From the IMG/VR virus record IMGVR_UViG_3300027804_000039, positions 127,096 through 191,095 of that record: DNA of 64,000 bases. One strand, given 5' to 3'. The translations under genes and the position numbers were made by a program. This DNA is from a virus. A model generated the notes under the pieces. It made no database searches and was not told where the DNA came from. It saw only the letters and a list, made by a program, of their open reading frames with translations. Shown piece after piece: positions 594 to 14,258 of the stretch. Position 1 is the stretch's first letter. Every line of letters begins with the position of its first letter.

Positions 594-796
594 GGTGCAT
601 CCTAGCAATTAGGTATTTATCGCGAAGCGCTGGCGCGGTAGATATCCTAGCCGCAAAGCGGTGCGCGAAAATTTTTGATGCGCCTCAGTAGTCCAGTCCC
701 AGTTCATTTCATTCACCGGTTGGCCATTCGTTTAGTCCAGAGACAGCGGCCCCGGACTAAACTCTGGGTGATAAATATACAAAAGAGGATACCGCC

Positions 797-1021
797 GTGA
801 AACAAATACCCGAATACATTGTAAAAGCGCACAGCAGAAAGTTAAACATGACCCAGCGTGAACTTAATCTTATGAGTGCTCACCCTCGATCAGCAGCTGA
901 CGCACAACGTTGGGCAGACAGTTTTGCCGCTAGACTGAACGAACAACAGTTCCTACGCACAACAGATTGGCAAGGACAAATTGAGCAAGTTGACCCAAAC
1001 AATCACGCTCGTACAAGATAA
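797..1021 (+). CDS. Hypothetical protein
   Basis: 74-aa ORF; GATAAATA box and AGAGG RBS upstream of GTG. Confidence 0.65.
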   Translation: MKQIPEYIVKAHSRKLNMTQRELNLMSAHPRSAADAQRWADSFAARLNEQQFLRTTDWQGQIEQVDPNNHARTR

Positions 1022-1024
1022 GCC

Positions 1025-1222
1025 ATGACACACGACGACTGGACACGATGGGTTAGAAATCAACTAGTCCAAGTGGCTAGCGACAAATATCCCAACAACA
1101 TACAGCAACAAATGATATATCAAATTGGCTTTTTAGAAAGTCAATTGGCTGGTGCAATCCGTACTGACAGTAGAGTATATGATAATTTCAAAAGAAGTGT
1201 TCAAAGAGCTAGTAGACGATAA
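1025..1222 (+). CDS. Hypothetical protein
   Basis: 65-aa ORF directly after 797..1021. Confidence 0.65.
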   Translation: MTHDDWTRWVRNQLVQVASDKYPNNIQQQMIYQIGFLESQLAGAIRTDSRVYDNFKRSVQRASRR

Positions 1223-1281
1223 CTTATACTATGTAATAGCTTTGACTATTATATGTGTAACCAGCTTTAATTTGGGCTTGC

Positions 1282-1470
1282 TTATTGGTTTTCTAATAGT
1301 GCTATAGCTCGCTTGAACTCAGCAATAGTGGGTTCAGTCATACGCATTACAGTATGTTCAGTATGAGTGTCATATACACATATATGTACACTATCACCAT
1401 CAAAGTTCTTGACTAGTAACAGTTGCTTTGAGCCCTGTTCTAGTATCTTATATACAGTATAAGAAGTCAT
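1282..1470 (-). CDS. Hypothetical protein
   Basis: ORF track 1282..1482; second Met (MTSY) has GGAAAAAATT upstream. Confidence 0.5.
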   Translation of the reverse strand: MTSYTVYKILEQGSKQLLLVKNFDGDSVHICVYDTHTEHTVMRMTEPTIAEFKRAIALLENQ

Positions 1471-1596
1471 AATTTTTTCCATTGAGTCAACACAACTGCC
1501 ATTGCTACTTATACAGAGCGACTAGAGTGCAAACACAATAGCTATACTATACAGTCAGGTTATGGGCGGAACCTAAAGTTTTGAGCATATATGCAT

Positions 1597-1895
1597 GAGA
1601 CCCCGCTGCTGTGTATATACACTAATCTATATAGTCCAAATGACTGTAGCGTTCTAGTTGGGGATCTATCAAGTACAGTAAGTAAGCACGGTCCTCAGCT
1701 ACAAAGTAGTCCACACAGTCATTGCGTATACTGAACCAACCATGCAAACGCTGTGTAAGGAAACCCAAACTATCCTGTATAGTCCAGGATGAACGACTGC
1801 GTAGACATATGATAAGCATACGTGTATATAGTTGACTAGAGACCCCGCTGCTGTAGACTAGGGTAGAAGCTGTATATAGGGAAGGCCCCGCTGCT
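1597..1895. repeat. Three direct repeats of CCCCGCTGCT (two extend to GAGACCCCGCTGCTGT)
   Basis: Copies at 1597-1612, 1839-1854 and 1886-1895. Confidence 0.8.
1622..1819 (-). CDS. Hypothetical protein (MLIICLRS...)
   Basis: C-terminal part of track ORF 1622..1954; the upstream part runs through repeats, so the internal Met is preferred. Confidence 0.5.
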   Translation of the reverse strand: MLIICLRSRSSWTIQDSLGFLTQRLHGWFSIRNDCVDYFVAEDRAYLLYLIDPQLERYSHLDYID

Positions 1896-2036
1896 ATGCG
1901 TATGCGTAGGGGATGATTGGGGGAATGGGGGGTAACCATTTTAACTATGCCCATTTTGACCTCGAGTCAAGAAATTTTTTCTACCATATCTGCGGCACCA
2001 TAGCCTAGATTGTGGCTTGAAATCGTGAATCTGTCA

Positions 2037-2073
2037 CACTTTTCAACACTTTTCAACACTTTTTTGCACTTTT
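2037..2073. repeat. Four CACTTTT units at exact 10-bp period (iteron-like or phased tract)
   Basis: Starts at 2037, 2047, 2057, 2067; related copies at 2130 and 2141. Confidence 0.8.
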
Positions 2074-2214
2074 CTAATTCTTGGCCTTGCGTATAGACAT
2101 CATAGCGCATGGTGCCATGATCTAGATCACACTTTACTTGCACTTTTTCACACAGTATATACACGGTGTCAATTCTGCTAACCACACATAGAATATCAAA
2201 CCGTTAAATACATG

Positions 2215-2430
2215 ATGAAGCAGTATAATATAGTTCCTCTAGCACATATACACGTTAAGGACACAGACTATAATGTCTATATCAGTATGTGCATTGACAC
2301 ACGACAAATGCATATATTCAAATATAATGATACATGTTGTGATTATGAAGTCTTTGGCACTGAGGGAGAAGCTTGTAGATTTATAGAGCAACCCATGCCT
2401 GGAACTCATTCAAAAAATCGACGCAGATAA
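2215..2430 (+). CDS. Hypothetical protein, probably leaderless late gene
   Basis: TAAATA at 2205-2210, ATG at 2212 or 2215. Confidence 0.65.
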   Translation: MKQYNIVPLAHIHVKDTDYNVYISMCIDTRQMHIFKYNDTCCDYEVFGTEGEACRFIEQPMPGTHSKNRRR

Positions 2431-2443
2431 AGGCCTGGGGCCT

Positions 2444-2484
2444 GTTTGGGCTTTCAGCAAAACCTTCAAGCCCAAACCATTTTT
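2444..2484 (+). terminator. Intrinsic terminator
   Basis: GTTTGGGCTT/AAGCCCAAAC 10-bp stem followed by CATTTTT. Confidence 0.6.
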
Positions 2485-2610
2485 CGTTTTCTTAATAACC
2501 CGTTTGTCAACCTGGTCGTTGTTTTAAAGCAACGGTTAGTTGGCGCTTACCAACTTAAAAGGTGCTGCGCACCCTCCACGTCCATCCCCTGTATAGCAGT
2601 TCGAACCTAT
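2444..2610 (-). ncRNA. Putative small RNA A (antisense to the early direction)
   Basis: Minus-strand TTGACA(2640-2645)-17-TATAAT(2617-2622); no ORF follows; shares motifs with the copy at 4667-4752; 3' end uncertain. Confidence 0.4.
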
Positions 2611-2712
2611 GCCCAAATTATATGCGATTTTGGGCAAAGTGTCAAATTGGGCTAAAGACCCTACTGTCATCATGGACTTGACAGTTTGGGTTCAAAATGC
2701 TATAATTTGGAC

Positions 2713-3033
2713 ATGACGAAAAGAACTGCTCGTAAAGACTCAAACTATGTTATCTACGCTGCTATACATGAAGGCAATGTATACGTGGGCTTGACCCGTA
2801 AAGGCTCTACTACAGTGGCAAAGGCTGTAAAGGAGCGGTGGCGTAAGCATATTTCGCGGGCACGGCACGAAGACAGACAGTGGGTGATTTATCAGTACAT
2901 CAAGGGCGGAGCATGGACTGACTGGGAACATGAGGTTTTGGCTGTGATACGCGGGCGAGCTGAGGCTTATGCATGGGAGCGCGAGTACGTCAAGCAGCAT
3001 CAGCCCACACTCAACGATCAGTACATTGGTTGA
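2713..3033 (+). CDS. Stand-alone GIY-YIG nuclease
   Basis: YVIY...VYVG motif, conserved R (ERWRKH), E (AWEREY) and terminal LN; ATG 6 nt after TATAAT. Confidence 0.8.
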   Translation: MTKRTARKDSNYVIYAAIHEGNVYVGLTRKGSTTVAKAVKERWRKHISRARHEDRQWVIYQYIKGGAWTDWEHEVLAVIRGRAEAYAWEREYVKQHQPTLNDQYIG

Positions 3034-3089
3034 CAGGGTTGTTCAATCCTGTTATAATATAGGCTACAGTAAACGAAAAGGAGCGAACT

Positions 3090-3791
3090 TTGAAATTACT
3101 TTCCACAGCAAATCCCAAAATCCAAAAGGGTACGAAGCTTGGTTACTTGAGCTTTATCCTGCACCTCGCACCTGCTACACTCAGTGGCAAAGAGACTTGC
3201 CCTAAGCGCACCGCTGGTTGTACTAGTGCATGTCTTAACACCGCAGGGCGTGGTGGCATGTTCCGCAAGGGCGAAAACACCAACGTGATCCAGCAGGCTC
3301 GCATTCGCAAGACTAAAATGTTCTTTGAGCAGCGCGATGCATTTATGGCCCAGCTGGAGAAAGACATTAAATTGGGCATTAAGCAGGCTGCGAAGCTGGG
3401 CCTTACTCCTGTATTCCGTTTGAATGGTACTAGCGACTTGACTTGGGAGAAGTATGGCATTATTGAAAAGTTCCCCCAAGTACAGTTCTATGACTATACT
3501 AAGGTCTTGGGCCGTAAGGTTGCACACCTGCAGAACTACCACTTGACCTTTAGCGCAGCTGATGGCAACGACGCTGATGTGGCAAAGGCTGTGGCGCAGG
3601 GCATGAATGTGGCTGCGGTGTTTGACAAGCTGCCCAGCGAGTACATGGGCAAGACTGTAATTAATGCAGACGAGCACGATTTGCGCTTTTTGGACCCTAA
3701 GGGCGTGATTGCTGGCTTGAAGGCTAAGGGCAAGGCCAAAAAGGACACTAGCGGATTCGTGCGCCGTGTGATTGACATCCAGGCAGTTTGA
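3090..3791 (+). CDS. Phage gp88-like Cys-rich protein (radical-SAM-like TIM barrel)
   Basis: TCPKRTAGCTSACLN Cys cluster; FRLNGTSD, FYDYTK, YHLTFS and DLRFLD motifs. Confidence 0.7.
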   Translation: MKLLSTANPKIQKGTKLGYLSFILHLAPATLSGKETCPKRTAGCTSACLNTAGRGGMFRKGENTNVIQQARIRKTKMFFEQRDAFMAQLEKDIKLGIKQAAKLGLTPVFRLNGTSDLTWEKYGIIEKFPQVQFYDYTKVLGRKVAHLQNYHLTFSAADGNDADVAKAVAQGMNVAAVFDKLPSEYMGKTVINADEHDLRFLDPKGVIAGLKAKGKAKKDTSGFVRRVIDIQAV

Positions 3792-3831
3792 GCTTATAAT
3801 ATACACTTCAACAATGCAAATAGGAGCGACT

Positions 3832-4110
3832 ATGAACATTCAGGAAATCAACCGTGCTATCATTTCGGGTACATTCACTGCCCAAGAACTTGAAAGCATT
3901 CAGGACGCTGTCAAGTTCGCAAGAGCCAAGACTGCCCGTGTTAACTCTGTGACCTTCCACGCAGGTGATACTGTAAAAATTACCCATGCCAAGCTGGGCG
4001 GTACTGTAGTAGGCACCATCCGTAAGATTAAGATTAAAAAGGCTGACGTGTTCATTCCCGGCAAGAACGTCACTTACAATGTTCCCCTTTCTATGTTGGA
4101 GGCTGTATGA
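3832..4110 (+). CDS. Hypothetical early protein with KOW/SH3-like C-terminus
   Basis: Own promoter and AGGAGCG; FHAGDTVKI...GTIRKI pattern. Confidence 0.75.
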   Translation: MNIQEINRAIISGTFTAQELESIQDAVKFARAKTARVNSVTFHAGDTVKITHAKLGGTVVGTIRKIKIKKADVFIPGKNVTYNVPLSMLEAV

Positions 4111-4334
4111 AATCAATCAAAGAAATCTTCCCTGGCATTATGATCCTGGACAAAGAGCCAGTTGAAGTACAAAACCCATTCTCGGGCGAGTGCGCGGTCT
4201 TGGACCCTGAAGAGGTTGCTGTCTACGACTACATCAAAGGCTGTGAGCTCATGGGCGACTACACGGGTGTTCGCAAGGGCTTGGATTGGTTTAGCCGTAA
4301 GAACCCTGAAGCCTACATGACCCTGCTTGATTGA
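4107..4334 (+). CDS. Hypothetical early protein
   Basis: 75-aa ORF, ATGA overlap with the previous stop. Confidence 0.75.
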   Translation: MKSIKEIFPGIMILDKEPVEVQNPFSGECAVLDPEEVAVYDYIKGCELMGDYTGVRKGLDWFSRKNPEAYMTLLD

Positions 4335-4384
4335 CAGACTAGCCCAAACCTGTTATACTGTAGTCATAGTGAAAGGAGCGACAT

Positions 4385-4663
4385 ATGATGTTCACGCTAG
4401 AAGTATATAAAAAGGATGCTCGTACTAAAAAGGGCGAGCGATTGGTACATAAGGCAGACCATGACATTAGCAATAGTGGCCCTGCTCTGAATATGTTCGA
4501 GCATACTGTCAAGCATACATGGCGAGCTGGGCAGGGTTATCGTTATGAAATCCATGTGACTTATGTAACGAAAAAGAACATGATGACGGGTAATGAGTTT
4601 GTCGAGCGTTACGATACGCCTTACTACTGCTCGCCCAGTTCTGAAACCTACTGGAGCATGTAA
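4385..4663 (+). CDS. Hypothetical early protein
   Basis: Own promoter and AGGAGCG. Confidence 0.8.
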   Translation: MMFTLEVYKKDARTKKGERLVHKADHDISNSGPALNMFEHTVKHTWRAGQGYRYEIHVTYVTKKNMMTGNEFVERYDTPYYCSPSSETYWSM

Positions 4664-4666
4664 AAC

Positions 4667-4692
4667 AAAACCCGGCTGTCAACCGGGTTTTT
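4667..4692. terminator. Bidirectional intrinsic terminator
   Basis: AAAACCCGG-CTGTCAA-CCGGGTTTT. Confidence 0.8.
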
Positions 4693-4752
4693 CATTTGAT
4701 CAGGGTTTAGATTCGACGCCCAGCCTCCACGTCCACCCCCCTTTGTTCGACA
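4667..4752 (-). ncRNA. Putative small RNA B, about 85 nt
   Basis: Minus-strand TTGACT(4781-4786)-17-TATACT(4758-4763), ending at the terminator 4667-4692; shares GGGGNTGGACGTGGAGG with copy A. Confidence 0.5.
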
Positions 4753-4892
4753 TTGTTAGTATAACAAAACCCGCCCAATCAGTCAACCAAAAGAACAATA
4801 CCCGAGTAAACCCTAAGGTCTTTAGCACCAAAAGGTTGACGTTTTGGGCGGACGGCGCTATAATTGCAGCATAAGTTAACAAGGAGCGCAAT

Positions 4893-5135
4893 ATGCAAAC
4901 AAACTGCCTAGCCCGTGCAACGCTTGTAAAAAGCCGCAAGCTGCAAAACACACAATTCTACAAACTCAAAGTCGCGTTTAATGTAACGCAAGTTAACCCT
5001 GCTACAGGCAAGTTTATTTTCCCTGTACAAAAACAATGCGCTTATGTAAGCGGGGACATACAAATTGACGAGCTAGGGCGTGTGCTTGTAAACGTGCAGC
5101 AAGTTATACGCAGCAAAAACATAGAACTTGTGTAA
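4893..5135 (+). CDS. Hypothetical early protein
   Basis: Own promoter and AGGAGCG. Confidence 0.75.
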   Translation: MQTNCLARATLVKSRKLQNTQFYKLKVAFNVTQVNPATGKFIFPVQKQCAYVSGDIQIDELGRVLVNVQQVIRSKNIELV

Positions 5136-5213
5136 GCTGTAGGGTCTTTATAGCGCACACTTGACATTTTGGGCAGGGTGCGCTATAATACAAACACTTA
5201 GAAGGAGCGTAAG

Positions 5214-5378
5214 ATGACTGTTAAAGAGCAACTGTTTGCTAAAATTGCAGAGCTGGAAAACCTGCTGTTGGAAGCTGAGTGCGACGGTGTACAGCTGGCA
5301 GAAGGTGACGATGTGCTGGGCGAGCTGACTAGCACACTAAACAGGCTTGCTGACGAGATTGACTACTACGTGGATTAA
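5214..5378 (+). CDS. Small acidic early protein, 54 aa (MTVKEQLFAK...)
   Basis: Read manually; promoter at 5161 and AGGAGCG at 5203. Confidence 0.75.
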   Translation: MTVKEQLFAKIAELENLLLEAECDGVQLAEGDDVLGELTSTLNRLADEIDYYVD

Positions 5379-5408
5379 TGCTATAATTGTTTTTTGAAGG
5401 AGCGATAG

Positions 5409-5771
5409 ATGAGTAAAGTACTTTTTAGCACTAGTGGCGACGGCTACTGGAGCAACGTGCAAAAAACTGTAGAGATTACAGACATGAAGCTGGGCTATGT
5501 TAGCGACGAGGGCGACTTTGGCGAGTTGCGAGTGTACTTTAACACTGACACTTGGGACGTTAATACAGACGGCTTAATTTACACAGACGGCCTGTTTAAA
5601 CAGGAGCTGATGGCGTTTATTAAAGAGCATGGGCTTGTGGTAGACTTGTGCTACAGCGAGCAAGGTATGCAAGGCGATGACTATGTGTCGCTGGACGTGG
5701 GCAAAGACTTTTTGGACAGCTGGGCTGCTAAGTTTGGCGTAGACAGCATTAAGGAGGCTATGTATGCTTAA
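5409..5771 (+). CDS. Hypothetical early protein
   Basis: Promoter at 5359 and AGGAGCG. Confidence 0.8.
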   Translation: MSKVLFSTSGDGYWSNVQKTVEITDMKLGYVSDEGDFGELRVYFNTDTWDVNTDGLIYTDGLFKQELMAFIKEHGLVVDLCYSEQGMQGDDYVSLDVGKDFLDSWAAKFGVDSIKEAMYA

Positions 5772-5958
5772 CGACAAACAAAACAAACTGTTACTTGAAG
5801 CTGTAGACTTACTGCACCGCGCGGATGCATTAATGCAGCAAGGGTGGGGCAAGGAAGAAGGCGAAGAGTTGTACTGTATACACAATGCCATTGAGTGCGC
5901 AGCTGACGACATATTGGATTACATACAGGCAAACAACCCAGAGGACATGGATGCTTAA
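5764..5958 (+). CDS. Hypothetical acidic protein
   Basis: Overlapping start/stop with both neighbours; GGAGG upstream. Confidence 0.7.
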   Translation: MLNDKQNKLLLEAVDLLHRADALMQQGWGKEEGEELYCIHNAIECAADDILDYIQANNPEDMDA

Positions 5959-6175
5959 CAATACACTACAGTGGGCAGGCACTGTATGTCTGCTCACTAT
6001 GTATGTCCTAATGAGCTTTTACCCACACCTCCACCCTTGGAACATTGCGGCTGGAGTACTTGGAGGCATTTGCTACTTGGCTTGGACTGTGCGGGTGCGG
6101 AATACTCCACAATTAATTGTCAATGCAGTTGCAATAACCATTGGGCTTGCAGGGTTATTCAAGGCATGGGGTTGA
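5951..6175 (+). CDS. Small membrane protein (about three hydrophobic segments)
   Basis: MLNNTLQWAGTVCLL...; hydrophobic stretches. Confidence 0.7.
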   Translation: MLNNTLQWAGTVCLLTMYVLMSFYPHLHPWNIAAGVLGGICYLAWTVRVRNTPQLIVNAVAITIGLAGLFKAWG

Positions 6176-6226
6176 CAGTTTGGGCAAGCTCTGCTATACT
6201 ATAGGCTAAGTTAACAAGGAGCGAAC

Positions 6227-6499
6227 ATGTTAAACATTTCTAAAATTGTCAAAACCTACTCAGGCAAAATGGGTGGTTGTATGTGCGGGTGCCGGGGCAA
6301 GTATTCCTACACCGCAGACGGAGCTGCTAACCACGGCCCGGGCTACAATGTAGAGGACAGCGTCAACGAACGCTCTGTACGCATTATCGCTAAGAAGGTG
6401 CTAGCCAATCCCAACTGCAAGTGGGAGGACAACATTGCCTACGTCGAGGACAAGGTTAAAGGCCGCATCCAAGTAATCTTTTTTAAGGAAGCCCTGTGA
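6227..6499 (+). CDS. Hypothetical early protein with GCMCGC motif
   Basis: Own promoter and AGGAGCG. Confidence 0.8.
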   Translation: MLNISKIVKTYSGKMGGCMCGCRGKYSYTADGAANHGPGYNVEDSVNERSVRIIAKKVLANPNCKWEDNIAYVEDKVKGRIQVIFFKEAL

Positions 6500-6744
6500 T
6501 TACTGCTGAAGCACTTCAAACCCTCATCAACTACCGTGCCCCTGAACTGACACGCTTGGTCAAGGAGGGCGGGTACAAAGGCCCTGCGTTCAGCTCATGC
6601 CGCTTCCTGGGCATTACTAACGGCGGGCAACTGTGCTACCTTGCTGTCTTCTTAGTGGAGGGTGGCACTGACAGCGCAAAGGTGTTTGTTACCCACAGAG
6701 CTGGTAGGGTTTCTGCAGAGGTTGACAGGAACTCAGTTTGGTAA
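6496..6744 (+). CDS. Hypothetical early protein
   Basis: GTGA overlap with the previous gene. Confidence 0.7.
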   Translation: MITAEALQTLINYRAPELTRLVKEGGYKGPAFSSCRFLGITNGGQLCYLAVFLVEGGTDSAKVFVTHRAGRVSAEVDRNSVW

Positions 6745-6776
6745 TATAATATACACATACTAACAAGGAGCGAACC

Positions 6777-7013
6777 ATGCGAGTAGAAGACCTTATTGCA
6801 GAACTGCAACTCATGCCACAGGACGCAGAAGTCCACTTCCAATACAATTACGGAGACCACTGGCGCACCCAGGTTGCTCCTACTGTCGACAGCGTAGAGA
6901 TGGGTCTTGTCAAGTACAGTGACTACCACCGTATGCCCAAAGTCGTAGAACCCGACTGGGACGAAGAGGACGCTGACCAAGTTGACGGCAAACAAGTTGT
7001 CTTAATTGGTTGA
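6777..7013 (+). CDS. Hypothetical early protein
   Basis: Own promoter and AGGAGCG. Confidence 0.8.
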   Translation: MRVEDLIAELQLMPQDAEVHFQYNYGDHWRTQVAPTVDSVEMGLVKYSDYHRMPKVVEPDWDEEDADQVDGKQVVLIG

Positions 7014-7073
7014 CAACTAACCCAAATCCAGTTATAATACACACATCAACAGCAACTTAGGAGCGAAACTAAA

Positions 7074-7541
7074 ATGGCTACACGTTCAACTATTGCCCTG
7101 GAATACGCAGACGGTACAGTGGACAAGATTTACTGTCACTGGGACGGCTACTTGGATAACAACGGCAAACTCCTGTTTGACAACTATAAGGACCCGTTCA
7201 AAGTGCAACGCCTTATGGACTTGGGTGACGTAAGCTCACTGGGCCCTAACATTGGCGACAAGCACGACTTCGACTGCCCTTTCCCTTACGGTACTCCTGA
7301 GTATGTTAAGTGGACTGACGACAAGCGCGAAGTGACTACGTTCTACGGACGCGACCGTGGCGAAACTGGTACGGGTGCCCAGCGTTATAAGGACTATGCG
7401 GACTATCGTGCCAACGCACAGTTTGAGGAATACAACTACATCCTCCGCAAAGACGGCAACTGGTATGTGGAGTTTTACGGTGACTTTGACGGCTTGCTGT
7501 CTGAGGCATTTGAATTTCAGCGAGCACAGGAGGAAGCATGA
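7074..7541 (+). CDS. Hypothetical early protein (MATRSTI...IYCHWDGY)
   Basis: Own promoter and AGGAGCG; IYCHWDGY motif typical of phage early proteins. Confidence 0.8.
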   Translation: MATRSTIALEYADGTVDKIYCHWDGYLDNNGKLLFDNYKDPFKVQRLMDLGDVSSLGPNIGDKHDFDCPFPYGTPEYVKWTDDKREVTTFYGRDRGETGTGAQRYKDYADYRANAQFEEYNYILRKDGNWYVEFYGDFDGLLSEAFEFQRAQEEA

Positions 7542-7726
7542 CAGGCTTTCAAAGCAAAAGGGCTTCGGCCCTTGACAAGCTCAACACAGAATGGATTGAC
7601 TTGCGTGAACGAGTGCTAGAACAAATCGTCAAAGATGTTAACGACGGCGACTTGACTGCCATCGAAGAACTGTTGGTCTACTGCGACGAAGAAGCTATGA
7701 AACAATTTCTACCGGAGGAAGCATGA
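7538..7726 (+). CDS. Hypothetical protein
   Basis: ATGA overlap; GGAGG upstream. Confidence 0.7.
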   Translation: MTGFQSKRASALDKLNTEWIDLRERVLEQIVKDVNDGDLTAIEELLVYCDEEAMKQFLPEEA

Positions 7727-7902
7727 GTAAACTAGCAGAGCTGGCCTACGACATTGAGCAACTGTACATTGAAGGCCTGCACCCTACGAAGATTGCTCGC
7801 GAACTGAACTGTCCTTTGAGTATAGTATACGATTGGCTTGAAGCGCAGAGCCTAGACGAAGGTACAGAAGAAGCCAGCCCGTTCAACACTATTAACAGCT
7901 AG
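7723..7902 (+). CDS. Small helix-turn-helix protein, 59 aa
   Basis: Read manually: EGLHPTKIARELNCPLSIVYDWL has HTH spacing; ATGA overlap; GGAGG upstream. Confidence 0.65.
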   Translation: MSKLAELAYDIEQLYIEGLHPTKIARELNCPLSIVYDWLEAQSLDEGTEEASPFNTINS

Positions 7903-7914
7903 TTCGCTCCTAGC
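7898..7914 (+). other. Hairpin displaying the complement of the early RBS motif
   Basis: GCTAG-TTCGCTC-CTAGC; 7903-7911 TTCGCTCCT is the reverse complement of AGGAGCGAA. Confidence 0.65.
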
Positions 7915-7922
7915 AACCCTGA

Positions 7923-7953
7923 GGGGGCCCAGGGCATTGGCCCCCATTCTTTT
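7923..7953 (+). terminator. Intrinsic terminator
   Basis: GGGGGCC-9 nt-GGCCCCC followed by ATTCTTTT. Confidence 0.7.
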
Positions 7954-8007
7954 GGTTGACAACAACTTCTTTTGGTGCTATAATATACACATACTAAGGA
8001 GAGCGAC

Positions 8008-8241
8008 ATGGCAACTATCCAGATTGACGGACTAAACAAGACCCAGCGAGCCCTAGCAGACATCATGTGGGGCATGGACAGCAAGGATCAGGTAACTGCA
8101 TTCATCAGCAGCCTACGTGGACAGCAACAGCGTGATGCCCAAACCGTCCTGGAATTGATGCTGTTGGCCATTTGGGACGAGTGCGAAGATACCCTGGAAG
8201 CCAGCCAGGTTATTGGTCAGTTCCGGTTGACTGGTATCTAA
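8008..8241 (+). CDS. Hypothetical early protein
   Basis: Promoter at 7956; AAGGAGAGCG RBS. Confidence 0.8.
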   Translation: MATIQIDGLNKTQRALADIMWGMDSKDQVTAFISSLRGQQQRDAQTVLELMLLAIWDECEDTLEASQVIGQFRLTGI

Positions 8242-8285
8242 TTTGGTGCTATACTATAGGCTAAGTTAAACAAAAGGAGCGACAG

Positions 8286-8549
8286 ATGAACATTGCAACT
8301 ATTGAGCAGTATGTGGATGGTAAAAACAAGTGGGGCGCCCTGTTTGGCAACAAACCTCTGAGCCTGCTGGATGCAGCAGACCGCCAGAAGATTGCAGACA
8401 GCATTGACGCAGACCTCAGCCCTGAGAACTTGACCTGCGATGGCGAACTGCCTCGCTCACAAGTTCAGCAACGCTACCAGTTCCTGACTCGTTGTGCCCA
8501 GGAGTTGAAGAGCATTGATCCTAATGTAACCTTTTACGAATATGGCTGA
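8286..8549 (+). CDS. Hypothetical early protein
   Basis: Own promoter and AGGAGCG; DLSPENLTCDGE motif. Confidence 0.8.
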   Translation: MNIATIEQYVDGKNKWGALFGNKPLSLLDAADRQKIADSIDADLSPENLTCDGELPRSQVQQRYQFLTRCAQELKSIDPNVTFYEYG

Positions 8550-8634
8550 ACTTATCACTTACATCCTGCTCCGCATCATCCAGGTAGGTATCTTGGTGTT
8601 TGCGGTAGCAGTATTCATCAACGGTTTTTTCTAA
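8542..8634 (+). CDS. 30-aa single-pass membrane peptide
   Basis: Read manually: MAELITYILLRIIQVGILVFAVAVFINGFF; fills the gap exactly. Confidence 0.5.
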   Translation: MAELITYILLRIIQVGILVFAVAVFINGFF

Positions 8635-8643
8635 GGAGCGAAT

Positions 8644-9246
8644 ATGCCTAATTGGTGCAATAACACAGTAGAAGTATATCATCCGGACCCATCCAAGCTC
8701 AAGGCTTTGGTAGAGGCGTTTAACGAAGGTAAGTTCTGTAATCATATCATTCCAGTGCCCAAAGAGCTCACTGAGACTGTAGCAGGACATTGCGGCGAGG
8801 GTTATGCTCAGGACTTGAATCAGTTCAAGATGGAACTGAACCTAAAATACTTTGGTGCCAAAGACTGGTATGACTTCTGTGTTGCACGATGGGGCACTAA
8901 ATGGGATGTAGGCGGCGACAATGCCTACAGCGATCCTGTAGAGCTCAAAGAAGGCCAGAATGATGTGACCTTGGGCTTTGATAGTGCATGGAGCCCTCCT
9001 GTTGGTGTATATGAGGCTATGGTTGAGCAAGGCTTCAGCGTTCGTGCATACTACTATGAGCCTGGCATGGCATTTGCTGGTGTATGGTGGGACGGTGATG
9101 ATAATTACTTTGAATACGGTGGCTTGACCAGCGAGCAGATCAAAGAGGAACTGCCCAGCGATTTGGACGAGTGCTTTGGCATCAGTGAGTCAGTCGCAGA
9201 ATGGGAAGCAGAAAACGAAGAAGAGGAAGAACATGACAGCAAGTAA
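8644..9246 (+). CDS. YubB/DUF1281-like ferredoxin-fold protein
   Basis: MPNWCNN, WGTKWDV, FDSAWSPP and YYEPGMAFAG motifs. Confidence 0.75.
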   Translation: MPNWCNNTVEVYHPDPSKLKALVEAFNEGKFCNHIIPVPKELTETVAGHCGEGYAQDLNQFKMELNLKYFGAKDWYDFCVARWGTKWDVGGDNAYSDPVELKEGQNDVTLGFDSAWSPPVGVYEAMVEQGFSVRAYYYEPGMAFAGVWWDGDDNYFEYGGLTSEQIKEELPSDLDECFGISESVAEWEAENEEEEEHDSK

Positions 9247-9296
9247 AGAAGCAATGGATCAACTAGACGCTATCATAGCTCGATGGATTAAGGATC

Positions 9297-9572
9297 GTGA
9301 GTAAGCTCGAATTCTACTGTAGACCATTGGTTGCCTTTGATCCTAACAACAAGGATCATAGGCGCTGGTACTACCAATTCATTGAATATGGCGGCTGGGG
9401 CAAGTGCCCGGTTAGGTTCATTTGCCCTGAGGATTCGGGCTCAGACTTGACCATTATGATCCGCAACCAATTGATTGATTTCTATGTCCGAAAGGAGTTC
9501 GAACGAGCAAACAAGAAAACGGTTGTCCAAAATGTAAAGAAAACGGTTGACAAGCAACCAAAAAAGCGTTAA
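9297..9572 (+). CDS. Hypothetical protein
   Basis: 91-aa ORF with a GTG start. Confidence 0.7.
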   Translation: MSKLEFYCRPLVAFDPNNKDHRRWYYQFIEYGGWGKCPVRFICPEDSGSDLTIMIRNQLIDFYVRKEFERANKKTVVQNVKKTVDKQPKKR

Positions 9573-9581
9573 AATACGAAC

Positions 9582-10001
9582 ATGCTAAGGAAACTGGCAT
9601 ATAACTTAAACCACAGAAAGAGAGATACACACATGGCTACAGATAAACTTTTTACCGTTTGCGGCGTTTCAAAACATCCCGACCTGGGCTATAAGGTTCG
9701 ATTTGCTACCGACATCATGCGAATCAAGAACCTCGCCAAGTCAGGTCATGAGGACATTCGTCTTGCTGAGCTGGACACTGCTGTCACCAAGTATGAAGCA
9801 GTTACACAGATCAAGGGCATGGACGAGTTTCAAGATGCCGCAGCACAGTCTGCAATCGCTGAGTACCTTGAGGACAATGCTCCTAAGGCACCTAAGGCTA
9901 AGGCAGCTCCTAAAGCTAAGACCGTCCCTGCTGCTAAGGCTCCTAAGGCCAAGGCTGCTGCTAAGACTGTTGACGCAGACCTCGAAGACGCTCCATTCTA
10001 A
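9582..10001 (+). CDS. Putative nucleoid-binding protein with Lys/Ala/Pro-rich tail
   Basis: APKAPKAKAAPKAK... histone-H1-like tail; start at 9582 (leaderless) or 9633. Confidence 0.7.
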   Translation: MLRKLAYNLNHRKRDTHMATDKLFTVCGVSKHPDLGYKVRFATDIMRIKNLAKSGHEDIRLAELDTAVTKYEAVTQIKGMDEFQDAAAQSAIAEYLEDNAPKAPKAKAAPKAKTVPAAKAPKAKAAAKTVDADLEDAPF

Positions 10002-10004
10002 GCA

Positions 10005-10208
10005 ATGCGGTACGGGTGCTCTCTAAGTGACGATTACACACCTAACCGTGTGGTCATCCGTGACTTTGAGAGTTCACCCAAAGGCCGCGTTCTATGCGTC
10101 ATTGCTAGGGACAACCTGCACGAAGCGAACCAAATAGCACAGAATCTTTGTGACCTTTTAAACCATCAATACCAAAATGAGCTGGACTCAATACGAAGTA
10201 TGGGCTGA
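10005..10208 (+). CDS. Hypothetical protein
   Basis: 67-aa ORF filling the gap; weak RBS. Confidence 0.45.
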   Translation: MRYGCSLSDDYTPNRVVIRDFESSPKGRVLCVIARDNLHEANQIAQNLCDLLNHQYQNELDSIRSMG

Positions 10209-10365
10209 ACTAGACGGCCATCAGGAACTTCTTGAAACTACACACAGTAAGAAAGAAGCTATTCAGATAGCAGAGAAACACTTTAATGACGGGTGCGACT
10301 TTGTTGAAGTATTTGAAGAAACCGCAGATGGCGACTACTCATCCATCAAACAGCTAAGTAGATAA
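10177..10365 (+). CDS. Hypothetical protein
   Basis: 62-aa ORF. Confidence 0.65.
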   Translation: MSWTQYEVWAELDGHQELLETTHSKKEAIQIAEKHFNDGCDFVEVFEETADGDYSSIKQLSR

Positions 10366-10371
10366 CACTTA

Positions 10372-10449
<78 letters not shown>

Positions 10450-10452
10450 ATT

Positions 10453-10529
10453 CTGCCCGTAGCTCAACTGGATAGAGCAACAGCCTTCTAAGCTGTAGGT
10501 CGGGGGTTCGAGTCCCTCCGGGCAGGCCA
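10453..10529 (+). tRNA. tRNA-Arg(TCT)
   Basis: CTGCCCG/CGGGCAG acceptor, ACAGC-CTTCTAA-GCTGT anticodon arm, TTCGA T-loop, encoded CCA. Confidence 0.95.
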
Positions 10530-10596
10530 CTTTCGGTTGACACACTCCTTGTTTGGTGCTATACTATAGGCTAAGTTAAACAAAAGGAGCGACACA

Positions 10597-10824
10597 ATGG
10601 CATTCACCCTAGAATCTCGAGACAACTACGATACCCGTCACGGCGGCCCTTTTGACCGTGGATCAGCTGACAGTTACTATGGGCGTGGTCGTAACCCTCA
10701 CTACTATGTTGGTGGCACTGGCACCAGCGAGCGAGTAGAGACCCTAACACCCGCAGAAGTCCAGGCCTACCTAGCAGGCTACCAGTACAACGAGCAGTTT
10801 GGCGATAAGAAAGACTGGGGCTAA
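10597..10824 (+). CDS. Hypothetical early protein (RHGGPFDRGSADSYY)
   Basis: Own promoter and AGGAGCG. Confidence 0.8.
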   Translation: MAFTLESRDNYDTRHGGPFDRGSADSYYGRGRNPHYYVGGTGTSERVETLTPAEVQAYLAGYQYNEQFGDKKDWG

Positions 10825-10889
10825 ACGGTTGACAACTTCTGCCCAATTTGCTATACTGTAGGCTAAGTTAAACAAAAGGAGCGAACCTT

Positions 10890-11285
10890 ATGATGCTAGT
10901 AATCGACACGCAGTACATGGAAAACTACGGCGCCCACGATTGGGACGGCAAGGGCGAGTGCCCACAGTACTGGAAAGCCAAGGGCGGCAGTGAGTTCAAG
11001 GTTACTGGCATTCCCCGCAACGTCGATGTAGACCATGTGCTGTTCATGCTGGGCCAGGAAGTTCAGTGGAGTGACAACGGTTCAACCAGCACCGTTATTG
11101 GCACACACATCGAGGAGGATGACTACCTCAGCTGGTTTGAGAAGTCACAGATGGAGTACGATGGTCGTGTGGTGTTCGCAGAGCCCAGCATCAGCTATGC
11201 AGACCTTTGCATTGAAGAGCAGGCACGTCAGCAAGAATACGCTGAAATTGCCGCAGACCTTGACGCAATCTACTACGGAGCTTAA
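10890..11285 (+). CDS. Hypothetical early protein (TQYMENYG...YWKAKGG)
   Basis: Own promoter and AGGAGCG. Confidence 0.8.
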   Translation: MMLVIDTQYMENYGAHDWDGKGECPQYWKAKGGSEFKVTGIPRNVDVDHVLFMLGQEVQWSDNGSTSTVIGTHIEEDDYLSWFEKSQMEYDGRVVFAEPSISYADLCIEEQARQQEYAEIAADLDAIYYGA

Positions 11286-11286
11286 T

Positions 11287-11475
11287 ATGAAATCAGCAGG
11301 CTTTTTGTTGGCAGTTGGATTCCTACTTACCTTTGGTGCTGTAGGCGGTATTGAAAACGATGGTCCACTGGTGGACTGTTTGATTGTAGCAGTCCTGGGC
11401 CTGGCCATCATGGGCTGTGGATCTTTGATGTTGCACAAGGCCAAGCGCCCGGTTGACAACCCCACGCTTTGGTAA
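11287..11475 (+). CDS. Small two-helix membrane protein
   Basis: MKSAGFLLAVGFLL...; C-terminal part of track ORF 11035..11475; GGAG upstream. Confidence 0.65.
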   Translation: MKSAGFLLAVGFLLTFGAVGGIENDGPLVDCLIVAVLGLAIMGCGSLMLHKAKRPVDNPTLW

Positions 11476-11513
11476 TATAATACATACTTCAACAACGCAA
11501 ACAGGAGCGAAAC

Positions 11514-11864
11514 ATGTCTGCACTCAACTACACCAAAGAGCAAGTCGAGCAAATCGTCAAAGAAGCACAGACTGCTGCATACAAGGCCGCAATGGAGTTC
11601 TTCTACGATAAGTTGGGCGGCAAGGACCAATATGCTTGTGGCTTTGCTTGGGTTAACATTTACAAAGTCCGAGGCAACACCAAAGTTGGCATGGCTCTGA
11701 AAGCTGCAGGCATTCGTCCCAGCTATCAAGGCGGCCTGCAGATGTGGAACCCAAGTGGCATGGGTGTGCAGAATGTGGACACTCTGGAAGCGGGTGCAGA
11801 AGCAGCAGCGGCAGTGTTTACCAAGTATGGTTTTGAAGCCTACGCAGGTAGCCGACTAGATTGA
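11514..11864 (+). CDS. Hypothetical early protein (YACGFAWV)
   Basis: Own promoter and AGGAGCG. Confidence 0.8.
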   Translation: MSALNYTKEQVEQIVKEAQTAAYKAAMEFFYDKLGGKDQYACGFAWVNIYKVRGNTKVGMALKAAGIRPSYQGGLQMWNPSGMGVQNVDTLEAGAEAAAAVFTKYGFEAYAGSRLD

Positions 11865-11919
11865 CACAAGAGCCGCAAGGCTCTATAATTAATGTTTTAA
11901 ACACACAGGAGCGCAATAA

Positions 11920-12813
11920 ATGGGACGACCCGCTGGTAGCAAGAACAAGGTTATGACTCTGGAAAGCCTTAAGAGCATGGCTGTAGAATCTAAGAGCCTA
12001 GAGCAGGCCAAGATTGAAAAGGACCTCAGCAAAGAGTCTGACGAAAGCATTATGGCACGTTTGGGCCAACGTTTTGAAATCCTTGAAGACATGACTCGCG
12101 CTGTAAAGAAAGGCGACGTTCGTGCAATGATTGTAACTGGTCCTCCAGGCGTTGGCAAGAGCTTTGGTGTTGAAAAGGTTCTGGGCAAGCATGATGTGTT
12201 TGCTGATGTAGCCAATGACTCAAAGCTGAAAAAGTACGAAGTAGTCAAGGGCGCCATGTCAGCCATTGGCTTGTACAAGAAGCTGTATGAGTTTAGTGAT
12301 AAGAAGTGTATCCTAGTGTTTGATGACTGTGACAGTGTGCTATTGGACGACTTGAGCCTTAACATTCTAAAGGCTGCACTAGACTCTAGCAAGAAGCGTA
12401 CCATTCACTGGAACACTGACAGCAGACTGTTACGTCAAGAAGGTGTGCCCAATAGCTTTGAGTTCAAGGGCGGTGCTATCTTTATCAGTAACATCAAGTT
12501 CGATCACGTTAAGAGCAAGAAGCTGCGTGACCATTTAGAAGCATTGGAAAGCCGTTGCCACTACTTGGACTTGACTATTGATACTGTACGTGAGAAGCTG
12601 CTGCGTATACGTCAAGTGGTACGTGACTGTGGCATGCTGGATGACTATGCATTTGATGATAGTACTAAGACAGAAGTAGTAGAGTTTATAGCTGCCAACG
12701 CTGCTCGTATGCGTGAGCTGAGCCTGCGTATGGTGCTAAAGGTAGCGGACCTGCGTAAGAGTATGCCCACTAACTGGCAGGCCGTTGCTGAAGTAACTTG
12801 TATGAGGCACTAA
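11920..12813 (+). CDS. AAA+ ATPase with an N-terminal AT-hook-like motif
   Basis: Walker A GPPGVGKS, Walker B LVFDDCD; N-terminus MGRPAGSKNK. Confidence 0.85.
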   Translation: MGRPAGSKNKVMTLESLKSMAVESKSLEQAKIEKDLSKESDESIMARLGQRFEILEDMTRAVKKGDVRAMIVTGPPGVGKSFGVEKVLGKHDVFADVANDSKLKKYEVVKGAMSAIGLYKKLYEFSDKKCILVFDDCDSVLLDDLSLNILKAALDSSKKRTIHWNTDSRLLRQEGVPNSFEFKGGAIFISNIKFDHVKSKKLRDHLEALESRCHYLDLTIDTVREKLLRIRQVVRDCGMLDDYAFDDSTKTEVVEFIAANAARMRELSLRMVLKVADLRKSMPTNWQAVAEVTCMRH

Positions 12814-12827
12814 GACCTCAGCAAGGT

Positions 12828-12914
12828 GGCCACTGACCCGATTCGCTCCCGGTGATGTGGTCGAGTTGTGCCCCAGGATATCCGATTCGCTCCCGGTGTC
12901 CTGGGGATTTTTTT
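12828..12914 (+). ncRNA. Putative 3'-UTR small RNA: two hairpins with an identical ATTCGCTCC loop, the second also a terminator
   Basis: 17-bp direct repeat CCGATTCGCTCCCGGTG (12838-12854, 12882-12898); stem CCCCAGGATATCCG/CGGTGTCCTGGGG followed by T7; G-U pairs favour the plus strand. Confidence 0.6.
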
Positions 12915-13109
12915 GATTGAATGATCGAAAAAAGATTTCGAAATGGTGAGGGGGGTCGGGGTATATATTATATTTTTGTTGTTTTTTACAACAGCGCAAG
13001 CCTAAATTTTCACCCCATATAGGTGTAAAATCACCACCCTGAGAGGAAATAGTAGCTATTTTAAATTTTTCGCGCACCAATTTTTTTAGGCTACAGGACC
13101 CATTCTGGA

Positions 13110-13763
13110 CTAAACGTCCGCGCCCAGTCTACGCAACATTGTATAAGCATTCTTCTTAAATGCTTCAAATCCTGCGCTATGTGCCACTGGAGCCAGTCCT
13201 TGATTGATGTCTGCAATAGCAAACTTTCCCACTCCAATTTCTCTAACATCATTTAGCTGTGTTCTAATATCGCCTATGGTTGCGTCCAGGCGTTCAGCAG
13301 TACGTTTTAAGTTGGGCATACCATAGTACTTGCTGATACCGTTTTCTGTACCTTTGTTAATCCATCCATCCGGACCAATGCCAAATATAGGATACCACTT
13401 GCCAGCTGCTACACCTTTTTTACCTGCATCTCCAGTACTCAAATAAAATGGTACACGCACACCGTCCACTGGCACTATTACTATAGCTCGCCCGTCATAG
13501 TTAACCACTGGTACCGCACGTTCCACAAAAGTATTCTTTGACTTGTCCCATATTTTAGTTGCCATGGGCTCTAGCTTGACTCCAGCTTGACTGGCTCTTG
13601 ATGCTATTTGATCAGCTAATATAGCCACCTTTGGTGCTGCAGTTGCTGCTGCATTGCCCATTTTAGGCACAACCTTTGTGGCTGTGTCAGCAGTCTTTTG
13701 TGCAAATGTCTTCATTAGAGCATTTACCATAGCTGCGTTTTCAATGATTTCTTTGACTTTCAT
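13110..13763 (-). CDS. Late protein, possible capsid-internal/injected protein
   Basis: Start moved to MKVKEIIE (13763), 7 nt after TATAAATA; Ala-rich linker then a globular domain (PFYLSTG...KWYPIFG). Confidence 0.7.
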   Translation of the reverse strand: MKVKEIIENAAMVNALMKTFAQKTADTATKVVPKMGNAAATAAPKVAILADQIASRASQAGVKLEPMATKIWDKSKNTFVERAVPVVNYDGRAIVIVPVDGVRVPFYLSTGDAGKKGVAAGKWYPIFGIGPDGWINKGTENGISKYYGMPNLKRTAERLDATIGDIRTQLNDVREIGVGKFAIADINQGLAPVAHSAGFEAFKKNAYTMLRRLGADV

Positions 13764-13766
13764 GGT

Positions 13767-13776
13767 TAAATATTTA
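13767..13776. promoter_or_regulatory. Palindromic bidirectional T4-type late promoter TAAATATTTA
   Basis: TAAATA on both strands, 5 nt before ATG 13778 (+) and 7 nt before ATG 13763 (-). Confidence 0.7.
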
Positions 13777-13777
13777 T

Positions 13778-14020
13778 ATGCAACAATACTATGTACTAAC
13801 TTTAGAACCCAGATGTGGCGAAGTGTTTCGCTGGATAGAGTCACATCAACTGGACTACGAAGTACACTTGAATCGTACACGCTTTTGGATACCCAAAGAT
13901 AGTCTGTTACAAACAGAGTTTTTACTGCGTTTTAGTGAATGCTGTGGTACTGTGGATGAATCATTAGATACACTTACTGGCATGCCCAAAGTTGGTGTGC
14001 TAGATTCTAGGCCCAAGTAA
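13778..14020 (+). CDS. Hypothetical protein
   Basis: 80-aa ORF directly after the late box. Confidence 0.7.
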   Translation: MQQYYVLTLEPRCGEVFRWIESHQLDYEVHLNRTRFWIPKDSLLQTEFLLRFSECCGTVDESLDTLTGMPKVGVLDSRPK

Positions 14021-14258
14021 GCAAAAATAGCGTACGGTGTTTTTCCCATTTGAAGGCTACGCAGGCTTCCCATGAGTTATGATCTCTTTGTGTAGCCCAT
14101 GCCCAGCGAGTCCAGTGGCCGCCCACATATTGATTTAACCATTGTTCCATGGTGAGATAACCTTGTATCCAATCCATTTGGATCTGTGGTTGAGGCCAGG
14201 GTGCAGTGGCTATGTAGTCAAAGTCATGATACTCTGGCAAATAGTAGCTGGTAGGCAT
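14007..14258 (-). CDS. Hypothetical Trp-rich protein
   Basis: Start moved to MPTSYY, 5 nt after TAAATA (14264-14269). Confidence 0.7.
   Translation of the reverse strand: MPTSYYLPEYHDFDYIATAPWPQPQIQMDWIQGYLTMEQWLNQYVGGHWTRWAWATQRDHNSWEACVAFKWEKHRTLFLLTWA

Follow-up and report, generated by a model that had tools for sequence, protein, structure and literature searches.

Why should the hairpin loops at the 3' end of a phage transcript display the reverse complement of the ribosome-binding sites (RBSs) that stand ahead of the same phage's early genes? The question is raised by a 64-kb stretch of DNA (64,000 nucleotides, here called the window), which forms the final part of a 191-kb IMG/VR virus record (IMGVR_UViG_3300027804_000039; GC ~40%, completeness rating ~50%). 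Many promoter-proximal genes in this window carry an extended Shine-Dalgarno (SD) sequence of the general form (A)GGAGCG(A)(A), referred to below as the tag, and the 3' untranslated region (3'UTR) of an AAA-ATPase gene at the end of their block carries two hairpins with complementary loops, referred to as the anti-tag. Comparative sequence analysis gives good support to functional RNA-RNA pairing between tag and anti-tag, because the two short motifs have changed elsewhere into a new complementary pair, one member of which always lies in unpaired loops of the sense RNA. That the 3'UTR at 12814-12914 is a phage regulatory RNA that represses the tagged early mRNAs as a class by such pairing is, in our judgement, somewhat probable, whereas pairing in vivo, the repression, the action in trans and the timing are inferences that go beyond pairing potential.

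The tag is concentrated in a single block. Small plus-strand genes occupy 2.6-12.9 kb of the window, where 17 strong sigma-70-type promoters were located (2.6-11.9 kb), nine of them with a perfect TTGACA-17-TATAAT arrangement, and it is these consensus promoters, together with position, that lead us to regard the block as early. It meets the minus-strand replication and structural block convergently at 12.8-13.1 kb. GGAGCG has 18 plus-strand occurrences, of which 15 are RBSs placed 5-10 nt ahead of start codons between 3080 and 11908. Twelve of the 15 read GGAGCGA and seven read GGAGCGAA; motif counting thus reproduced exactly the numbers given in an earlier note on this DNA. The sequence TTCGCTCC was observed 10 times on both strands against 0.87 expected, a number reached by none of 100 shuffles (0/100), and AGGAGCG was observed 17 times against 2.6 expected from shuffles. 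Over the whole record, GGAGCG accounts for 19 of 133 GGAG-type candidate SD sites. The commonest SD form in the remaining genome is GGAGA, and early-operon genes that do not directly follow a promoter have GGAGG in place of the tag. The earlier note did not see the tag ahead of replication or late genes; 15 of the 19 sites genome-wide do lie in the early block, but the tag also serves four genes on the minus strand beyond the window (genome 68778, 70563, 72333 and 124762).

All 15 tagged RBSs lie on the plus strand, and nearly every one is listed here with its promoter. The form AGGAGCGAA is found at 3079-3087 (TTG start at 3090; promoter 3030-3058), 6217-6225 (promoter 6172-6200), 6766-6774 (6722-6750), 7059-7067 (7010-7038), 10877-10885 (10829-10857) and 11503-11511 (11453-11481), and the form AGGAGCGA at 3822-3829 (3772-3800), 4374-4381 (4331-4359), 5398-5405 (5359-5387), 8275-8282 (8227-8255) and 10585-10592 (10537-10565). 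AGGAGCG stands at 4882-4888 (4836-4864), at 5203-5209 (5161-5189) and before the AAA-ATPase gene at 11907-11913 (11861-11889), whilst the RBS AGGAGCGAAU at 8634-8643 contains GGAGCGAAU, which is complementary to the twin loops described next over all 9 nt.

The AAA-ATPase gene (phrog_1250; 11920-12813, plus strand) is the last of the early block, and its 3'UTR bears the twin anti-tag element (12814-12914, plus strand; two hairpins and a U-tract), our core regulator candidate. The predicted fold of this element (-39 kcal/mol) leaves both 9-nt loops unpaired. Hairpin A (12828-12862, plus strand) has the apex CCG-AUUCGCUCC-CGG at 12838-12852, with its loop at 12841-12849 and an opening energy of 0.78 kcal/mol. 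Hairpin B (12871-12914, plus strand) is an intrinsic terminator, formed by a stem-loop at 12871-12906 and U7 at 12908-12914; it repeats the apex CCG-AUUCGCUCC-CGG at 12882-12896, with its loop at 12885-12893 and an opening energy of 0.18 kcal/mol, and the two apices therefore share the 15-mer CCGATTCGCTCCCGG. No promoter-like site was found on the plus strand between 12000 and 12830, and the element shares the terminator of the AAA-ATPase mRNA (stop at 12813, U7 to 12914). An extra anti-tag hairpin, GCUAG-UUCGCUC-CUAGC, lies at 7898-7914 (plus strand) and holds in its stem the TAG stop codon of a 59-aa HTH_23 protein gene (open reading frame (ORF) 7723-7902, plus strand). Directly after it come a GC-rich intrinsic terminator with a U-tract (7923-7953, plus strand) and a perfect sigma-70 promoter (7956-7984), which together make a terminator-promoter composite; the same hairpin variant is also found 3' of the AAA gene in a related locus (L066), and its complement AGGAGCGAACU is present at 3079. 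Each of the three plus-strand hairpins reported by the earlier note, beside or within intrinsic terminators, was borne out. Rfam, searched by cmscan over positions 1-14000 at E up to 1, returned two tRNAs and chance-level matches, with none at 7898-7953 or 12814-12914. A further hairpin at genome 85921, with the minus-strand loop CGCUCCCUCC, was set aside as it lies inside an ORF.

Complementarity between tag and loop extends over 6-11 nt at the 15 RBSs of this genome, and the 9-11 nt of pairing potential previously indicated at 3079 and 8635 are correct. Accessibility-corrected loop:RBS energies in this genome average -9.1 kcal/mol at GGAGCG sites versus -2.9 kcal/mol at other GGAG sites, and raw loop:tag duplexes (-11 to -20 kcal/mol) are stronger than SD:anti-SD pairing (-6.5 to -10 kcal/mol). 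The tag may also resemble part of the 16S rRNA, and the loop the 3' tail of that rRNA, but no weight is given here to either likeness.

Tag and anti-tag occur together in more than 100 related IMG/VR contigs. The AAA-ATPase gene has 196 plus 132 relatives in IMG/VR. Conservation was counted on loci selected by protein (L001-L080), a set unbiased for motif. Relatives had been proposed as the place to look for joint presence of RBS motif and loop, and both features are indeed kept in 63 of the 80 loci. Relatives supplied 427 GGAGCGA RBSs; those with the GGAGCGA/UCGCUCC pair are called clade A below. Across 454 unique promoter-proximal RBSs the consensus runs A (.91), GGAG, C (.93), G (.74), A (.71), A (.68), with GGAGCGAA the top 8-mer (220/454), and the remainder of the 5'UTR holds only 0.1-0.5 bit per position. 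The distance from tag to start codon is fixed, whereas that from tag to -10 box varies between 13 and 24 nt. This pattern points to selection on the tag itself and not on the whole 5'UTR.

Such focused conservation bears on the proposal that the repeats are by-products of recombining cassettes of the kind known from phage T4 as PeSLs, homogenised by gene conversion, with RBS and loop unlinked. Cassettes are clearly in play at this locus: perfect sigma-70 promoters with similar 5'UTRs recur, and in contigs of a DNA run from freshwater, early genes that are not neighbours here are fused precisely at tagged RBS/promoter cassettes (4373>10920, 6217>7954, 8275>11526 and 10584>11526; joint positions in the window at 4373, 6217, 7994-8004, 8275, 8633-8644, 10584, 10920 and 11526). 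Conservation is nonetheless concentrated on AGGAGCGAA and weak in the surrounding 5'UTR, which argues against plain homogenisation of promoter/UTR cassettes. Only an 8-9-mer is shared between tag and anti-tag sites here, the loops stay invariant while their stems turn over, and homogenisation predicts neither a reverse complement confined to loops nor the co-variation described below for clade B. We therefore regard this proposal as an extremely improbable account of the motifs; cassette shuffling probably coexists with the tag system without explaining it.

The anti-tag side is conserved in a different manner. Exact matches to the 15-mer were found in more than 120 viral contigs, where it almost always caps a longer hairpin with an outer stem of its own in every instance, ahead of a U-run or a second terminator. 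The loop itself is nearly invariant, GAUUCGCUCC, also written GATTCGCTCC, accounting for 95 of 213 unique CGCTCC sites that are not RBSs, whilst the closing stems covary (CCG/CGG, GUG/CAC, GUUG/CAAC and CUAG/CUAG). Among 45 unique homologous terminators the outer stems are different yet complementary, with flanks that differ at 10.3 of 14 positions between instances. MAFFT left these outer stems out of register, and flank permutation was used instead: real elements folded at -15.0 kcal/mol with 13.1 spanning pairs, against -6.8 kcal/mol and 8.6 pairs once the 3' flanks were permuted. In 59 unique related 3'UTRs a syntenic element is present, with exactly two copies in 49, and 88% of motif nucleotides are unpaired in their minimum-energy folds. 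Orientation is strongly biased, terminator-linked loops reading UCGCUCC in the RNA sense 93 times and GGAGCGA four times. The gene that hosts the element in relatives is the conserved AAA-ATPase or a small winged helix-turn-helix (wHTH) gene, and in two complete relatives (383 kb and 364 kb) sense hairpins occur only at this AAA/wHTH-operon 3'UTR locus, other 9-mer matches being opposite-strand RBSs or coding sequence. Sense hairpins are in essence confined to one locus in each genome, with occasional extras such as that at 7898 here. The description of the hairpins as standing at the ends of early transcription units thus fits all three in this window, but family-wide they mark essentially one locus and not terminators generally.

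These properties also speak to whether the shared motif might be a duplex-DNA site for a phage protein, such as the HTH or wHTH protein encoded upstream, which would use it in both orientations, at early 5' regions as well as at the end of the operon, so that tag and anti-tag would both follow the specificity of that protein. HTH_23 and HTH_39 genes do lie directly upstream of anti-tag sites, a single protein specificity would equally explain a coordinated change between clades, and forward copies might be counter-selected in 3'UTRs because they would act as spurious SDs. Against a DNA site, the anti-tag lies exactly in the unpaired apex of covarying stems in both clades, an arrangement that duplex DNA does not need; the spacing of the tag is constant relative to the start codon but ranges over 13-24 nt relative to the -10 box; the loops have one orientation in 93 cases and the other in 4; and the neighbouring gene in most genomes encodes an AAA ATPase, not an HTH protein. 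We consider a duplex-DNA site highly unlikely. As an observation on gene order, small HTH genes (the HTH_23 gene at 7723-7902 and an 89-aa HTH_39 wHTH gene at L085:1603-1872) are the commonest neighbours upstream of anti-tag sites, the AAA ATPase excepted.

Within clade A, no fine-scale covariation was found between the loop and the ninth RBS position, the 5' A of the loop being fixed and the RBSs having mostly C or A there, because both motifs are nearly invariant. Pairing is instead indicated by a sister group. Clade B (locus L071 with its relatives L212-L233) has the same promoters and AAA gene but a different promoter-proximal RBS, GAGGGCA(A), whose logo runs G(.84) AGGG C(.81) A(.79) A(.65). 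GAGGGC is present in 45 of the 90 unique clade-B windows and GGAGCGA in three. The 3'UTR of the clade-B AAA gene carries 2-3 copies of UGCCCUC, the reverse complement of this tag. Seven unique UTRs were scored, and in six of them the first copy lies no more than 2 nt from the stop codon. Further copies form 6-nt apical loops, G-UGCCCU-C, on covarying stems that vary from locus to locus, and the last of them is the terminator apex. GCCCTC occurs 53 times in 5.2 kb of clade-B syntenic 3'UTR, whereas the remaining 246 kb of these loci contain it 32 times. Locus by locus, clade A has only A-type RBSs and A-type UTR motifs, and clade B only B-type. Four positions differ between the clade-B tag AGAGGGCAA and AGGAGCGAA, each matched by a complementary change in the anti-tag. 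One clade-B loop contains GTTGTGCCC, which is shared by descent with a clade-A spacer and makes that copy only partly independent; the copy at the stop codon and the remaining loops have no such explanation by shared descent. The co-variation of RBS motif and loop that the earlier note had proposed as a check is therefore present, GGAGCGA/UCGCUCC having become GAGGGCA/UGCCCUC jointly in a sister clade. Clade-B 3'UTRs (L212-L233) also retain GCUCCG near the stop codon (10 in UTR windows versus 18 elsewhere in the loci), and GGAGC is present in 10 of the 90 clade-B RBS windows; these could be a relic of the clade-A system or a sign of dual specificity with it.

Loss is joint as well. Both tag and anti-tag are missing from three lineages (L073-80, L234-243 and L244-265), and a third tag/anti-tag pair, sought in the distant AAA lineages L073-80 and L234-265, was not found: there an ORF directly follows the gene and the RBSs are generic. 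A tag kept without its loops, or the reverse, had been named as one observation that would refute the proposed system; the lineages that lack the tag also lack the loops. In a quick maximum-likelihood tree of the AAA protein, clade B forms one group nested among A-type rows, while one of the lineages with neither motif is nested with clade B (support 98) and another with a further group, clade C (L272-L288; support 95), a nesting from which a single coordinated switch follows, together with no fewer than two joint losses. In clade C itself, a single-stranded UCGCUCC directly follows the stop codon of the wHTH gene. The earlier claim that the loops are the antisense partner of a class-specific RBS is thus supported as regards pairing, through the coordinated clade-B switch and the joint absence.

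The coordinated switch also weighs on a reading in which the loops bind an RNA-binding protein or nuclease, as sponge, stabiliser or antiterminator target, whilst the tag is read separately by RegB/S1-like or RegA-like factors and the complementarity is incidental. T4 early mRNAs do carry an extended site of 11 nt, GGA plus an A-rich stretch, for RegB/S1 (PMC1702504), and two spaced identical loops resemble sponges for dimeric proteins. Separate readers would not be expected to produce a joint clade-B switch to a new complementary pair, however, and the clade-B tag GAGGGCAA has no GGA triplet. RegB (PF10715) gave no match in this record and three relatives (two complete), nor did RegA (PF01818) in the same four records; the search controls were silent, so that both negatives are weak. 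Overall, incidental complementarity of this kind appears very improbable.

Under class-wide repression, the two apical loops AUUCGCUCC, with an extra copy at 7898-7914, would act as anti-tags that base-pair with the extended SD tag AGGAGCGA(A) of most promoter-proximal early genes. Pairing over 8-11 nt would cover the SD and compete with the 16S anti-SD, so that tagged mRNAs would be translationally repressed as a class and ordinary GGAGA and GGAGG sites spared; with the SD inside the duplex, the simplest outcome would be that the RNA competes with the 30S subunit and hence represses. The element may act as a 3'UTR-derived small RNA (sRNA) or as the 3' end of the mRNA, sRNA-like action being suggested because it ends in the operon's own terminator. 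If the structured 3' piece accumulated relative to its targets, feedback on early protein synthesis or its shut-off could follow.

The same pairing might have a role other than class-wide repression in trans. It could be real but act in cis or locally, by circularising or stabilising the mRNA, by coupling termination to reinitiation, or by silencing RBSs on read-through transcripts (insulation). The first anti-tag copy stands at or near a stop codon in 6 of 7 clade-B UTRs, in 10 of 59 clade-A UTRs, in the 7898 hairpin and in clade C, so that a terminating ribosome would control anti-tag exposure, and the order hairpin, terminator, promoter, tagged RBS recurs. A cis anti-SD of the same sequence is present in one 5'UTR, that of the minus-strand gene at genome 72333, where AUUCGCU lies ~40 nt upstream of the gene's own GGAGCGAAU RBS and is predicted to sequester that SD in cis; both halves are kept in a related genome (G003, also L205) with a differing spacer. 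Pairing of 5' and 3'UTR that controls RNase access also has a precedent (PMC5737220). Insulation sits poorly with the twin locus, which lies at a convergent junction with no plus-strand gene downstream to insulate, and a cis role sits poorly with the AAA gene's own RBS, which is among the weaker matches, and with an SD duplex that would still need to be removed before initiation. Trans action is favoured because a single regulator locus faces dozens of dispersed tagged RBSs. Overall, we think a purely local role unlikely.

Several observations weigh against class-wide repression in trans. Most RBSs read GGAGCGAAC or GGAGCGAAA and the loop begins with A, for which reason pairing usually extends over 8 nt and not 9-11; the AAA gene's own RBS (GGAGCGC) is complementary over 6 nt only; and clade C keeps AGGAGC with three variable bases after it, so that many of its RBSs would pair weakly. 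Two to three loops face ~15 or more target mRNAs, and searches for phage Hfq and ProQ gave no matches. Regulator and targets are driven by the same class of sigma-70 promoter, and any delay would require differential stability, which we assume. The AAA tree, rooted at its midpoint after a quick search, calls for caution, and the comparison offers some three independent events and not dozens. The RNA data are assembled metatranscriptome contigs, blind to a discrete 3' fragment, to its ends and to its abundance. Such contigs (studies X18 and X19) match the early block with zero mismatches; no contig from an RNA run covers 12901-14100, where the DNA run continues, and one ends at 12840, although contigs can show neither RNA ends nor levels.

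More tentatively still, and with rather more doubt than conviction, we propose that a large clade of uncultured freshwater jumbo phages may have an RNA-addressed regulon, in which a single multi-loop 3'UTR RNA shuts off a tagged class and tag and reader can be re-coded together (GGAGCGAA/UUCGCUCC to GAGGGCAA/UUGCCCUC), giving orthogonal channels of translation control. What is known of timing in large lytic phages concerns mostly proteins, namely sigma factors, RegA, RegB and anti-sigma factors. If correct, a phage-encoded RNA that recognises all genes of a class by their private RBS tag would bring a further, RNA-based level of control to the timing of phage development and provide a rare case of demonstrable co-evolution between regulator and regulon. 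The two natural tag/anti-tag pairs are a directly testable design for orthogonal translational switches. Moreover, the abundance of the element in lake metagenomes from several studies and in metatranscriptomes indicates that it is widespread in an environmentally common, bS21-encoding phage group and not a one-off.

The phage is a myovirus that encodes a tail sheath, a DnaB-like helicase and tail fibres, and its complete relatives have genomes of 364-383 kb. Nine studies of freshwater and wetland metagenomes contain near-identical DNA, as do three metatranscriptomes. A megablast search of 7000-13500 against the GenBank phage collection returned tRNA matches only, and one virion protein is less than 30% identical to those of jumbo phages (PA5oct-like); cultured jumbo phages thus appear to be only remote relatives, with no cultured close relative in that collection. 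At the left edge of the early block a perfect TTGACA-17-TATAAT promoter on the minus strand (2645-2617) points away from it. Genes for tRNA-Met(CAT) and tRNA-Arg(TCT) lie within the block (10372-10529), with a promoter and tagged RBS directly after them. On the ribosome, protein bS21 is positioned beside the SD:anti-SD helix. A bS21 gene is located outside the window (genome 79220-79375, minus strand) and also in three relatives (G001, G002 and G003), with matches to PF01165 in the phage and these relatives at E 1e-16 to 1e-22; a connection to class-specific RBSs is conceivable. Freshwater phages that encode bS21 have been described with Bacteroidetes as predicted hosts (PMC9723584). The E. 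coli-type promoters and strong SDs seen here argue for a host type that differs from those Bacteroidetes. The early terminator is separated from the convergent minus-strand gene by ~200 nt of noncoding DNA (12915-13110) with blocks kept across relatives (GGGGTCGG, AAATCACCA, AGTA..AATTTTTYGC and GGACCCATT), whilst the adjacent AAA-ATPase protein is only 69-86% identical. This region also holds a TTGTTG-N-CAACA hairpin; it may serve as an origin or a minus-strand promoter, or encode a further RNA.

The earlier note had held that no phage system of this design is described, which stands in that Rfam gave no match, but close conceptual precedents exist in anti-SD sRNAs with C-rich loops, P1 c4 and T4 RegB/S1. 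Among bacterial RNAs, enterobacteria have 3'UTR-derived sRNAs of the CpxQ, SroC and DapZ type. The element resembles these in sharing its terminator and U-tail with the upstream mRNA, in having seeds upstream of or within 3' hairpins, and in the lack of a promoter-like site between upstream gene and element. It differs in that its seeds lie in loops, the terminator loop included, and in that a discrete processed RNA is only proposed here. Among phage RNAs, the c4 antisense RNA of P1 and P7 is reportedly the subject of work by Citron and Schuster in 1990. Like c4 (PMC8198154), the element is a phage RNA co-transcribed with the operon that it would control, and short exposed segments are complementary to sites that cover an RBS. 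Unlike it, c4 has one target (icd-ant) and serves temperate-phage immunity, whereas dozens of RBSs are tagged here; the Rfam C4 family had no match in the scan of 1-14000.

The closest likeness in loop design is to bacterial anti-SD sRNAs with C-rich or UCCC loops, namely the Rsa RNAs of S. aureus, including RsaE (PMC2790875), LhrC of Listeria (PMC4132741) and 6C of M. tuberculosis (PMC6486639). They, too, have several identical unpaired C-rich loop motifs, in LhrC with one in the terminator loop; these are complementary to the SD region of several mRNAs, and the seed is far more conserved than the targets. Rsa RNAs and 6C are able to act without Hfq. The present element differs in being encoded by a lytic-type jumbo phage whose own genes are the candidate targets, and in that these share a dedicated tag (SD plus CGAA or GCAA) marking a promoter-proximal early class. 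It is moreover a 3'UTR and not a free-standing gene, has no sequence or Rfam relationship to those sRNAs, and is known from its sequence alone.

In its logic the system recalls T4 RegB/S1 and RegA (PMC1702504, PMC3014915), where early mRNAs bear an SD-linked signature by which a phage factor can inactivate all of them once the early period is over. The T4 reader is a protein nuclease or repressor, whereas an RNA would take that part here; the four records searched gave no RegA or RegB homologue (controls silent), and the clade-B tag is without GGA. T4 PeSLs (PMC2839356, PMC4122927) offer a likeness of arrangement, since stem-loop/terminator and early promoter composites flank small variable early genes and recombination takes place between related genomes. 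The order at 7898-7984, the 17 promoters at 2.6-11.9 kb and the contig joints at tagged RBSs are all of this type. PeSLs are, however, described as recombination modules, and a loop complementary to the downstream RBS, or its covariation, was not found in that description. In B. subtilis hbs (PMC5737220), as here, a 3'UTR segment near the terminator is complementary to the 5' leader near the SD, and in hbs this alters mRNA fate. There, a 14-bp cis interaction within a single mRNA modulates RNase Y, whereas one 3'UTR here matches many mRNAs. Ultimately, what appears to be new is the combination: a phage-encoded RNA directed at the phage's own early class, a private SD extension that would define the regulon, and a regulator and tag that have been re-coded together.

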